Shown piece by piece: positions 44,119 through 47,344 of a DNA stretch of 64,000 nt. Every line of letters begins with the position of its first letter. Position 1 is the first letter of the stretch. The notes under the pieces are model-generated. The model had not been told where the DNA came from, searched no databases, and saw only the letters and a program-made list of their open reading frames with translations. Source of the DNA: Bacillota bacterium (GTDB lineage: Bacteria > Bacillota > DTU025); contig JBMNJT010000002.1 of NCBI GenBank assembly GCA_050951805.1, positions 1,056,001 through 1,120,000 on the forward strand. The letters are read 5' to 3'. Made by a program: the position numbers and the translations under genes.

Positions 44119-45060
44119 ATGGAATTCCTATATTTCGTGGCTGACGCGTTAGCTACTACGGTGTCCCTCGCGGCACCTCTGATACTCACGGCCATTGGTG
44201 GTGTGTTTTCAGAGAGGTCGGGTGTGGTCAACATAGGGCTGGAAGGCATGATGCTGATCGGTTCTTTCATGGGCGTTCTCTTCTCCCATCTTACCGGCAA
44301 TGCCTGGATAGGGTTTTGGATGGGCGCTTTGTCTGGAGCCGCGGTGGCTGCTTTGCATGCATGGGTATGCATAAAGCACGGCGCAAACCAGACAGTATCG
44401 GGCGTGGCGATCAACATACTAGGGGCAGCTCTAACAGGCTACCTGTTGAGGGCCATATTCAACAGAGCAGGGCAGACTGAACCTGTTCCGGGCCTTGCGG
44501 CATGGACCATTCCCTTCTTGAAAGATGTTCCGATTCTCGGAGATATCTTCTACAGGAATATGCCTCCTGTATATATCGCCTTCATTGTCGTCATAGTCGC
44601 TCAGATAGTGCTTTTCAAAACTCCGCTGGGGCTCAGGATAAGGGCTTGCGGCGAACACCCGGAGGCCTCGGACACAGTAGGCGTGAACGTCGCTGGTATC
44701 AGATACTTGTGCGTGATACTCAGTGGATTCCTTGCAGGCATGGGAGGCGTCACGTTATCCCTTGGCCAACTCTCCCTCTTCAGGGAGGGAATGAGCGCGG
44801 GCAAGGGGTTCATAGCTTTGGCGGCGGTCATATTCGGCAGATGGACTCCTGTGGGAGCCATGTGGGCTTCGCTCCTGTTTGGTCTGGCAGACGGATTGCA
44901 GCTGACAGCACAGAACTGGGGATTTACTGCAATTCCGAGGGAGTTCTTGATCATGACGCCGTACATCGTTACTATGGCGGCATTGGCGGGCATCATCGGG
45001 CGGTCGGTTCCGCCGGCTGCAAGCGGGAAACCCTATGTCAGGCGTGGCGGGGGCGCTTGA
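44119..45060 (+). CDS. Nucleoside ABC transporter permease
   Basis: [24 protein letters not shown]. Confidence 0.9.
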
Positions 45061-45186
45061 TTACTTTGCTAGGCGGTGGAGCGGGACACGGCTTGGACGC
45101 ATCTTGAATGACAGGTGCCCAATACAGTACTGCTGTGGACATGTCGACGCCATTTACATGAGGCTGAGATGGCGCAGATGGTATTG

Positions 45187-45219
45187 AGAGGCGACCCCTC
45201 CCGTGACAGGGTCGCCTTT
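45187..45219 (+). terminator. Terminator-like hairpin ending the ABC operon; lies directly before the intron
   Basis: AGGCGACCC/GGGTCGCCT + TT. Confidence 0.7.
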
Positions 45220-45224
45220 GTGTC

Positions 45225-46089
45225 GTTCGCCCGGCATGTTTGTTGAGCCGATGGACTGAAAGAAGTCCTGTCACCTAACCAGCGGGAAGACAACCCCAAG
45301 GCAAGGGCGTCGCTGGTAACGGCGGGGTCTGAAGGAAGCTTTAAGGGGGAACACGGAACGTAGCGAAAGCGAACCGAAGTTGGCCTGTCAGGTGGGTAAC
45401 CTTGCGAAGTATGGGAAAGCCCGAAAGCTGGATAACCTGGGGGGTTTTGACGGACGGGTTCGTGTTCAGGCAGACAAACTTAACCGGGGAAGCCCTGCAT
45501 CATCCAGATAGCTGGTAAGCCCAAACAAGCGGAGACGCAAGGATGGGAATATGTGGTGTGGGGTGGCAGATGAGTCCGTAGTAGTTATGAACCCTCAGCC
45601 CATGAAAGCTGGCAACAGACCGGAGGATAAAACTGAGGGGACAGTGGCCAGGAGTCGCTGGGCTGCATAGGCCAAAAGCCTATGCAGTTGCGAAGGGACG
45701 AAGGCAAACCAAAGCGTGCAACCTAGTTACAGGCAAGCATGGGAGAGAGATAACAGAGGCTGAAATGCCGATGGGAACGGGGGAGCCGGGGGCGACGAGT
45801 CTGCTGGTCCCTGCGCCCGCTCAGCAGAGTATCAAAGTTTCGCGGGGTAGATTGCCTTAGAGCTAGAGACGCCTCGCAGGCCTTGGGAAGAAACTGCAAC
45901 CATGCAAGCTTGATGGCCAAGGAAGCACGGCGAGATGAATTGACCTCACGAAGTATGAGGTCGGCGTCTTGCATCTCTTCTATGAAGCGAAGTGACTAAG
46001 GTTTGCCAGGAGCCGTGTACGGGGCCCGTACGCACGGTTCTGTGAGAGGGATGACGCCAGGCCGATTACCTGGCGCCACCCTACTCGAT
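45225..46089 (+). mobile_element. ORF-less group II intron (IIC-like compact domain I, short domain V with AGC triad)
   Basis: 5' GTTCGCCCGGCATG; D1 motif GCAAGGG..GGTAAC..TCTGAAGGAAGC; D1 closes at TTAACCGGG; D5 GAGCCGTG-TACGG-GGC-CCGTA-CG-CACGGTTC; D6 GAGAGGG..CCCT(A)CTC with bulged A 46083; 3' end CTCGAT; no RT ORF. Confidence 0.9.
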
Positions 46090-46246
46090 GTTGAAATGGC
46101 ATTGAAAATGGGCAAGCTTTCATTGGGAGTGGATCAGTGTCGTGATGCGATGGAACCTGCGCTTCGGTTCGCAACATAGGTTGCCACATAGGTAGCTTAC
46201 GGAGGGCGGGAGCGCGCCGACGGAGGATTTCTTGTGATTTGGTGGA

Positions 46247-47344
46247 ATGATTAAGACTGTGGATATAAAGAACATGTCATTTGAGGAATGCAGAGGGTTT
46301 TTCGCGTCGCTCGGGGAGCCGGCCTACAGGGCGGACCAGGTTTTCGAGTGGCTTCATGGCAAGCGGACGGCGGCATACGATGAAATGACAAATCTCCCTG
46401 TCTCGCTCCGCAGAACGCTTGCGGAGGTCGCTCCCTTGCGTCCTCCAGAGGTCCTCGCCGTGCACTCCTCGCCCGGAGGTGCCACGAAATACCTGATAGG
46501 CCTGGCAGATGGCAATGCTGTTGAGACGGTCTTGATGGAGCATGACTACGGATTGAGCTTGTGCGTTTCGTCTCAGGTAGGCTGCGGTATGGGGTGTGCT
46601 TTTTGTGCTTCAGGCCTTGAGGGCCTCGTGAGGAACCTGACATGCGGCGAAATGATAGACCAGATATTGGCCGTGAGCAATGGCATCGCCAACGAAAGTC
46701 CCAACAGGCGCGTCAGTTCGGTCGTTATGATGGGAAGCGGAGAGCCCTTGGCCAATTACGATAACGTTCTCAAGTTTGTGCGACTTATCAACTGGAAGAG
46801 AGGCTACGGGATAGGCTACAGGCACATAACCATCTCGACATGCGGAATCGTGCCTGGCATACGCAGGCTTGCTCAAGAAGGGCTGCCTGTGACGCTTTCC
46901 GTATCACTCCATGCGCCGGATGATCACACACGGTCTGCATTGATGAAGATAAACCAGGTCTATCCAGTGGGGCAGCTGATCGAGGCATGTATTGATTATG
47001 CGAATTCCACGGGAAGACGCGTGACGTACGAGTATTCTCTGATAGGCGGTGTTAATGATTCGAGGGACCATGCCCTGCGGCTGGCGCGCCTCTTGGGGGG
47101 CACTTTGTGCCATGTCAACCTCATACCACTCAATCCCGTGCCGGAGACGGGGTTCGCTCGTCCCTCTCAGGAGGCAGTCAATGTGTTCGCTTGCACACTT
47201 CGTTCCGCTGGGATCGAAACCACTATCAGGCGTGAGATGGGCGGCGATATAGACGCAGCCTGTGGCCAGCTGAGGCGGAGGTGGGCAGGGCGTCCAGGGG
47301 CGTCTGATCCGAGCAAAAGGCGAGATGAGGGGGGTAGAGATTGA
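46247..47344 (+). CDS. rlmN: Dual-specificity 23S rRNA/tRNA m2A methyltransferase RlmN
   Basis: CVSSQVGCGMGCAFC radical SAM motif, MGSGEP, DIDAACGQL. Confidence 0.96.
   Translation: MIKTVDIKNMSFEECRGFFASLGEPAYRADQVFEWLHGKRTAAYDEMTNLPVSLRRTLAEVAPLRPPEVLAVHSSPGGATKYLIGLADGNAVETVLMEHDYGLSLCVSSQVGCGMGCAFCASGLEGLVRNLTCGEMIDQILAVSNGIANESPNRRVSSVVMMGSGEPLANYDNVLKFVRLINWKRGYGIGYRHITISTCGIVPGIRRLAQEGLPVTLSVSLHAPDDHTRSALMKINQVYPVGQLIEACIDYANSTGRRVTYEYSLIGGVNDSRDHALRLARLLGGTLCHVNLIPLNPVPETGFARPSQEAVNVFACTLRSAGIETTIRREMGGDIDAACGQLRRRWAGRPGASDPSKRRDEGGRD

Follow-up and report, generated by a model that had tools for sequence, protein, structure and literature searches.

Domain IV of an ORF-less group II intron in a Bacillota genome is the folded remainder of a full-length intron after a single deletion

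The DNA analysed here is a window of 64,000 nucleotides (nt) from a Bacillota genome (contig JBMNJT010000002.1; G000:C2:1056001-1120000 in our numbering), in which the intergenic region between an ABC-transporter permease gene, ending at 45060, and rlmN (46247-47344; TIGR00048, 405 bits) holds a complete group II intron without an open reading frame (ORF). The intron is of the class C (IIC) type, lies at 45225-46089 on the plus strand and is 865 nt long, running from 5' GUUCG to AU 3'. Two Rfam models recognise it: RF02001 (group-II-D1D4-3; domains I-IV, type 3) at 45310-45479 (+), with 61.7 bits against a gathering score of 32, and RF00029 (domains V-VI) at 46008-46089 (+), with 48.5 bits against a gathering score of 40, over model positions 1-77. 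Between the two matches, no further Rfam family appears at E <= 1. A sigma-70 promoter scan of 45000-46300 gave 0 sites, and a terminator scan of the same region did not return the complete hairpin that precedes the intron. The parts of the element are as follows; domain IV and its origin are the subject of this analysis.

45187..45219 (+): hairpin of the 5' exon, GC-rich and terminator-like, set off from the intron by a spacer of 5 nt (45220-45224); for the 50 nt upstream, RNAfold predicts 13 pairs at a free energy (dG) of -19.6
45225..45702 (+): ribozyme domains I-III (RF02001 match; 66-84% identity to full-length relatives in other genomes)
45703..46007 (+): domain IV in its ORF-less form (alignment of 5 ORF-less and 5 ORF-carrying copies)
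45939..45940 (+): deletion junction, the same in 5/5 ORF-less copies, with 1227 nt gone
45939..45995 (+): remnant of the gene for the intron-encoded protein (IEP), the last 18 codons (45939-45992) and the TGA stop, located by tblastn of the IEP of 423 amino acids (aa)
46008..46089 (+): domains V and VI (RF00029)

A DNA search of the genome with 45215-46100, repeated with blastn, led to 33 matching places. Ten copies have exactly the same ends, 5' GTTCGCCCGG and CTACTCGAT 3', within unrelated flanks, and these common ends set the limits of the intron at 45225-46089. Group II introns have the boundary consensus 5' GUGYG and 3' AY; the 3' AU agrees with it, and the 5' GUUCG of 10/10 copies departs from it at positions 3-4.

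The closest copies come in two lengths. Five are 865 nt long (the window copy, C7:28591-29455(-), C2:930928-931792, C4:16380-17243(-) and C2:464085-464949) and three are 2092 nt long (C7:21996-24087, C7:29456-31547(-) and C2:831218-833309). The long copies align with the window through 45939, then carry 1227 extra nt, and resume the alignment at 45940; likewise, in the search of the genome against itself, the match of the ORF-carrying copies splits at query position 725, which is window position 45939. The junction is identical in all of the short copies, with at most 1 nt of microhomology. The extra DNA of the long copies opens with GGAGCTAATTGATG, the ribosome-binding site and start codon, so that GGAG and ATG stand directly 3' of the breakpoint, and the deleted 1227 nt comprise the Shine-Dalgarno site and the start codon together with codons 1-405 of the 423 in the IEP gene. 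What is left as domain IV in the window copy is the native 237-nt 5' leader (45703-45939), the closing strand and, between them, the final 57 nt of the IEP gene; in the alignment, all 305 nt are found at the same place in the full-length intron.

A tblastn search with the 423-aa IEP returns residues 406-423 at 100% identity (E 4e-9), with all remaining matches at E >= 0.36; the C-terminus of the protein, ...IDLTKYEVGVLHLFYEAK*, corresponds to the 18 codons left in the window copy. A preliminary description of this DNA had seen no RT (reverse transcriptase) motif in domain IV and had taken the domain for a folded RNA rather than a decayed RT gene. The absence of the motif is correct, because the RT domain has been deleted, yet codons of the gene are still present, and the domain is that of a full-length intron minus its 1227-nt ORF loop. 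The same description had looked to tblastn for fused N- and C-termini of an IEP: the C-terminal remnant was found, as expected after a recent ORF deletion, and the N-terminus is not retained.

The short copy at C7:28591 and the long copy at C7:21996 differ at 0/865 shared positions, and the window copy differs from a full-length copy at 5/865. With only 0-5 differences per 865 nt, the deletion is recent, and the long-lived ORF-less lineage suggested earlier does not hold for a form that includes a copy matching its full-length counterpart at every shared position. The 305-nt stretch is an ordinary non-autonomous copy's domain and no new RNA module. We consider it very probable that it is domain IV of a non-autonomous class C intron that arose from the 2092-nt intron of its own genome through one 1227-nt deletion.

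The IEP of the long copies has 423 aa, with Pfam matches to RVT_1 (2.7e-40) and GIIM (3.6e-22) and to nothing else, and it matches NCBIfam group_II_RT_mat with 428 bits. It is intact, as an open 423/424-aa frame with YADD, in the three 2092-nt copies, which make up 3/5 of the ORF-carrying copies. Its nearest solved proteins are the GsI-IIC RT (8.4e-103) and a IIC maturase (3.9e-87), with LtrA behind them (1.1e-46); judged by these matches, it appears to belong to the class C lineage, without an endonuclease (En) domain. A scan of species-representative genomes with the IEP yielded 58 loci at 41-82% identity, mostly in Bacillota, with some in Desulfuromonadales, Bacteroidota and others. The IEP starts 234-247 nt past the end of domain III in 11/11 loci whose alignment reaches that end, and its stop lies 1-18 nt ahead of domain V in 24/25 loci, the 25th having a premature stop. 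At L055:1201-1494 (Thermotalea metallivorans), there is a premature stop at IEP codon 98, and the domain IV leader and tail still resemble those of intact relatives.

The hairpin at 45187..45219 is the DNA target motif of the intron. A stable hairpin ends 0-6 nt upstream of the intron in 10/10 genome copies, with dG from -13.8 to -28.7; among 500 random 50-mers (mean -10.9 +/- 4.2) the 5th percentile is -18.3, and eight of the ten hairpins are below it. Class C introns are described as inserting just downstream of terminator-like inverted repeats (PMC4424553; PMC1702495), and the hairpin targets together with the En-less, IIC-like IEP correspond to that class C pattern. At C7:28591-31547 (L002, L007, L014), a full-length intron is followed head-to-tail by an ORF-less copy without any spacer; here the target hairpin of the second, ORF-less copy is domain VI of the first. 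The 3' flank of C4:16380-17243(-), at C4:16340-16380, resembles the first ~30 nt of an intron copy with several changes (GCCCGGCAAGTCTGTTGAG...) and is possibly a fragment of an older insertion.

That the five ORF-less copies occupy separate hairpin sites fits their spread as RNA. An alternative is that the deletion allele was copied onto existing full-length insertions by homologous recombination or gene conversion, in which case the ORF-less copies may be immobile. Single-nucleotide polymorphisms (SNPs) at 45447/8, 45669, 45682 and 45879 occur with the two deletion states in all four combinations among the 8 close copies, a pattern that points to gene conversion between copies or, with less likelihood, to repeated identical deletions; the copy at C4:98674 is, moreover, a mosaic of 98% and ~75% identical segments. 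However, copying of the allele would yield the same deletion derivative, the mode of spread alone being different. The presence of 5 ORF-less against 3 intact copies, each at a proper hairpin, fits retromobility as described for TeI3 (PMC2882425), and the ORF-less copy that lies head-to-tail behind a full-length one is an insertion, not a conversion. We therefore regard spread by gene conversion as unlikely.

The folding of domain IV is better than chance: the 305 nt have a minimum free energy (MFE) of -119 kcal/mol, compared to -101.4 +/- 4.8 for shuffled sequences (z -3.65), and 0/100 shuffles do as well. This comparison had been called for in the preliminary description, whose claim of an extensively folded RNA in domain IV of an ORF-less group II intron is borne out; it is a folded RNA under selection. 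The particular fold put forward there, a nested arm of seven helices, fares differently. All 14 strings occur where they had been placed and every pair is canonical or G-U, yet enforcing the seven helices gives -102.5 kcal/mol, about the mean of the shuffles. Only 15/53 of their pairs are in the MFE structure, and these come from GGCAAACC/GGTTTGCC (8/8) and GACCTCA/TGAGGTC (7/7), the other five helices contributing 0 pairs.

We compared the helices across related introns in two alignments, A1 with 20 sequences and A2 with 26, both made with MAFFT and fitted to no structure. The closing helix GGCAAACC/GGTTTGCC is strongly conserved, and the GACCTCA/TGAGGTC hairpin is paired in 60% of cases in relatives, with weak covariation support. 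In contrast, TCTGCTG/CAGCAGA and CCTTGG/CCAAGG are 54.8% paired compared to 54.2% in shuffles, with 189/500 shuffles doing as well, and their covariation score of 0.165 equals that of shuffles (0.165; 234/500 as high; 20 sequences). The remaining three, TAGTTAC/GTGACTA, CATGGGAGAGA/TCTCTTCTATG and AGACGCC/GGCGTCT, are 50.7% paired compared to 49.7% in shuffles (117/500 as good), with a covariation score of 0.108 compared to 0.090 (22/500 as high; 26 sequences). Covariation, the other proposed check, does exist in domain IV, for helices other than these five; the lack of covariation that the preliminary description had coupled to a simple ORF deletion as refuting its reading was not observed.

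A different set of helices was derived from the close clade by eye and with RNAalifold and then tested against shuffles and slides. RNAalifold by itself gave a partial consensus only, on the 26 sequences, with leader and tail blocks joined, and on A1 (18 pairs in A1). In A2, MAFFT set the tail of the window copy over the ORF start; that row is gapped at the tail columns, and coordinates were taken from L006. The comparative model contains the following elements, all on the plus strand.

45703-10 / 46000-07 (+): closing helix; 94.8% paired, compensatory changes in 7/8 pairs (26 sequences), 8/8 pairs in the MFE structure
45716..45928 (+): leader subdomain, closed by GTGC/GCAC, which holds hairpins 45754-45773 and 45778-45815 and the long 3' arm
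45716-19 / 45925-28 (+): GTGC/GCAC helix; 96.2% paired (20 sequences), 91.3% (26 sequences), 4/4 pairs compensatory
45754-60 / 45767-73 (+): hairpin of the comparative model
45778-89 / 45804-15 (+): stem of the comparative model
45824..45897 (+): long arm of three helices (GCAG/CTGC, TCAAAG/CCTTGG, GCGGGG/CCTCGC); 15/15 pairs in the MFE structure
45824-27 / 45894-97 (+): GCAG/CTGC helix; 83% paired in A1, 3/3 compensatory
45832-37 / 45881-86 (+): TCAAAG/CCTTGG helix; 66% paired in A1, 6/6 compensatory
45842-47 / 45872-77 (+): GCGGGG/CCTCGC helix; 49% paired in A1 and 35-40% in A2, 5/6 compensatory in A1
45930-37 / 45965-72 (+): ORF-loop-closing helix GCGAGATG/CGTCTTGC; 86.3% paired, 4/7 compensatory, 8/8 pairs in the MFE structure
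45942-48 / 45956-62 (+): GACCTCA/TGAGGTC hairpin inside the remnant coding sequence; 7/7 pairs in the MFE structure, 60% paired in relatives
45974-80 / 45989-95 (+): stop-codon hairpin TCTCTTC/GAAGTGA, with one U-U mismatch in this genome; 80.6% paired, many gapped cells

The leader helices are 76.5% paired in the 20 sequences compared to 57.7% in shuffles, with a covariation score of 0.493 compared to 0.193 (0/500 shuffles as high); in the 26 sequences, which include distant ones, the figures are 66.9% compared to 50.2% and 0.444 compared to 0.187 (0/500). The long-range and tail helices behave in the same way (26 sequences; 79.4% compared to 65.5% paired, covariation 0.338 compared to 0.162, 0/500). 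In controls in which the helices were slid, the covariation score is at most 0.198 overall and at most 0.168 for the leader helices (20 sequences). Of the 62 comparative pairs, 55 are present in the MFE structure of the window copy. In the aligned leaders, a near-invariant motif, TAGATTGCC...GCTAGAGAC at 45848-45870, caps the long arm, and compensatory variants of the stop-codon hairpin (45974-45995) were spotted by eye among relatives. DNA similar to domain IV is contained in only 5/60 of the other related genomes searched. These results show that domain IV is a real structured RNA under selection, and that its structure belongs to the full-length intron and is unlike the fold proposed earlier.

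The same data bear on the idea of an ORF-less lineage that is long-lived and whose domain IV is an RNA module selected in its own right, such as a passenger non-coding RNA or a special platform. The folding energy relative to shuffles and the covariation of much of the domain speak for it, as do older ORF-less copies in this genome at 72-93% identity, one type of which is also found in a congeneric genome. However, every one of the 305 bases has its place in the full-length intron, the 3' 57 nt are IEP codons, and the differences from a full-length copy are as few as given above. ORF-carrying relatives are where the covarying helices are found, so that none is specific to the ORF-less form, and at E <= 1 Rfam gives intron models alone. 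We consider an independent module very improbable, and the passenger RNA of the preliminary description becomes a domain inherited from the full-length intron.

Nor does the leader seem to encode a small protein. The 31-codon ORF at 45765-45860 behind AGAGG, pointed out earlier, is present in the window and is also open in L022, L023 and L051. However, its ATG is absent in 9/20 leaders, an ATG with at least 25 open codons occurs in only 5/20 aligned leaders, and the ATG sits in the loop of a covarying hairpin. The ORF has no Pfam match, as is the case for all three small ORFs of domain IV that were searched. A coding function of this ORF is hardly credible.

How the ORF could be lost while the fold remained is suggested by the position of the deletion. 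In the full-length RNA, the GCGAGATG/CGTCTTGC helix would close off the ORF as a loop. The deletion starts 2 nt after the 5' strand of this helix and stops 2 nt before the next hairpin, and for that reason every domain IV helix survives: the loss of the ribosome-binding site, the start codon and 405/423 IEP codons spared the closing helix, the leader subdomain of ~215 nt, the ORF-loop-closing helix and the two hairpins of the last 18 codons. We infer that the IEP of the full-length copies would splice and retro-mobilise the ORF-less RNA in trans, binding the retained leader arm as the equivalent of D4a, and that the resulting ribonucleoprotein (RNP) would then reverse-splice into DNA immediately behind the 3' end of terminator-like hairpins. 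Retention of the leader would be due to selection, since copies lacking the platform for the IEP could not be mobilised.

In the solved IIC RNP, as the published account describes it, D4a is a long arm with a high-affinity maturase site that helps to hold the DNA target (PMC10190682). By analogy with that structure, the arm at 45824-45897 is a natural candidate for a D4a-type maturase-binding arm. The covarying helices of domain IV most likely make up such a platform, which would explain their retention; among the roles proposed in the preliminary description, a binding platform for a maturase acting in trans is the most plausible one for the retained part.

The TeI3 introns are IIB-type introns with an En domain. 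Those of Thermosynechococcus elongatus, as described by Mohr, Ghanem and Lambowitz in 2010 (PMC2882425), resemble the present case in that all ORF-less members lost the ORF of domain IV through one deletion with the same breakpoints, keep an ORF remnant and the IEP-binding subdomain, have IEP-encoding sisters in the genome and have spread to new sites, being mobilised in trans. The ORF-less copies analysed here likewise have common breakpoints and an ORF remnant, and their genome also contains closely related introns whose IEP is intact. The TeI3 family is described as having 17 copies, both N- and C-terminal remnants and diverged families, with trans-mobilisation shown experimentally (PMC2882425). 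In contrast, the present intron is of class C and has a C-terminal remnant only, 5 copies and almost no divergence.

Among IIC introns, B.h.I1 (PMC1702495) and the Eubacterium rectale intron of MarathonRT (PMC10190682) are described with the same En-less IEP of ~420 aa and the same insertion behind a hairpin, and in the solved IIC RNP the ORF is preceded by a long arm of domain IV, the high-affinity maturase site (PMC10190682); our intron likewise has a long arm ahead of the ORF. The present intron is unlike B.h.I1 and the E. rectale intron in starting with GUUCG and in being a natural ORF-less derivative. The solved IIC RNPs use engineered ORF deletions. The ORF-less dnaN introns of Trichodesmium are described as depending on the RT of a related intron as a general maturase, a dependence that we infer here, and as interrupting a housekeeping gene (PMC12584367); our intron, in contrast, is intergenic behind a terminator, where splicing would be of little importance to the host. 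Bacterial ORF-less introns are called rare in a 2015 review, which places them nearly always beside related IEP-encoding introns (PMC4424553). A word-based literature search for ORF-less introns of class IIC, and for the leader of domain IV in that class, gave no account specific to this clade.

Further derivatives are present in this and related genomes. The copy at C4:98674 joins GATGAAGG to GCCTCA and lacks domains V-VI, that at C2:1485624 joins GATGAAGGA to CCACGAGG, and that at C8:451131 joins GGAGCT to CAC and lacks 45663-45808, a form also found in the congeneric genome G002. These three junctions may be of one origin. They are unlike the junction in the window, so at least two deletions ended within a few nt of each other. 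The same C8:451131 junction in a second species of the genus means that this form is older than the family of the window copy, or was transferred. The copies concerned (C8:451131-451759, L013; G002:C282:1-500, L024) are diverged, 72-83% identical, with a shorter domain IV, and this ORF-less form is without the 5' strand of the closing helix. The copies at C2:860890 and C2:1021855, and those in G058 and G001, are shorter or cut differently.

A second deletion variant, at C3:143717-145566 (L010, L016) and C4:101073-102895 (L011, L019), has lost 242 nt between two copies of the 10-nt repeat CCTTAGAGCT; one copy belongs to the leader (window 45855-45864), the other falls around IEP codons 16-19. 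The variant is without the ribosome-binding site and start codon; the frame is open upstream into the leader for 404-408 codons, with no early Met. The copy at C2:1485480-1486680 (L012, L018) is composite: over its first 376 nt it matches the window intron at 99% identity, the next ~400 nt start like the 5' end of a different group II intron, and it closes with a domain IV of 79% identity that has a junction of its own. It is possibly a nested or recombinant intron.

One may ask whether the leader does more than bind the maturase. With its near-invariant apical motif and its steady 234-247 nt in the relatives examined, the leader subdomain of ~215 nt may be an undescribed class-wide element of this IIC clade that, for example, couples binding of the IEP to repression of IEP translation, and the ORF-closing helix may make loss of the ORF recurrent. 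The RT would jump across the base of this helix during cDNA synthesis and regularly shed ORF-less copies reminiscent of miniature inverted-repeat transposable elements. There are two hints of recurrent loss, at least 2 distinct junctions, with 5' breakpoints no more than about 6 nt and 3' breakpoints no more than about 13 nt apart, and the linkage of the same junction to SNPs of different full-length copies; we hold this wider role to be a doubtful, if conceivable, extension of the deletion scenario.

Public sequencing runs, belonging to 16 studies on digesters, bioreactors, landfill and sludge, also contain the locus, with DNA runs holding 85-91% of the words. Four RNA runs were examined at the level of contigs, which report presence, not expression. 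The ORF-less junction is crossed by a contig of X17 (761 nt, 45297-46057) and one of X20 (893 nt, 45225-46037); as these two RNA runs belong to different studies, the form is no artefact of this assembly. Loose ends at 45939 in X18 read into the end of the full-length ORF, and a form in X15 has 1086 other letters between 45864 and 45978, its start point agreeing with that of the second deletion variant. Contigs of X18 and X20, runs of two studies, join 46089 to 45225, a joint that reflects either a tandem arrangement of the DNA, as on C7, or a circle of RNA. One X18 contig joins the 5' exon to a sequence like the 3' exon without the intron (short side 25 letters, ~95% identical); it could stem from splicing of a transcript, from a relative in which the site is empty, or from chance.

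Several observations weigh against derivation by one deletion followed by mobilisation in trans on a maturase platform. The SNPs shared by short and long copies suggest that some ORF-less copies may have come from gene conversion of resident full-length copies, and the GUUCG start of all ten copies is not the usual GUGYG. Copies in G058 and G001, and those at C2:860k and C2:1021k of this genome, have lost parts of the leader. The comparative model was partly drawn by eye from the same sequences that were later counted, and its innermost helix, GCGGGG/CCTCGC, is poorly paired in both alignments, probably because of misalignment by MAFFT. Finally, contigs from RNA libraries are no proof of transcription, as DNA was possibly present in the libraries.

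Here a class C intron has been caught just after the loss of its protein gene, with donor and derivative still identical. The earlier reading is corrected on two points: the fold comes from the full-length intron, and five of the seven helices put forward lack conservation. As a IIC example with five copies, the intron adds a data point on ORF-less bacterial introns and opens no new question about them. As a naturally occurring deletion, the ORF-less copy is useful for mapping which parts of domain IV have to stay, and the comparative model of the leader, which consists of the closing helix, a pair of hairpins and the long arm under its invariant cap, offers candidates for the maturase-binding site of this clade.

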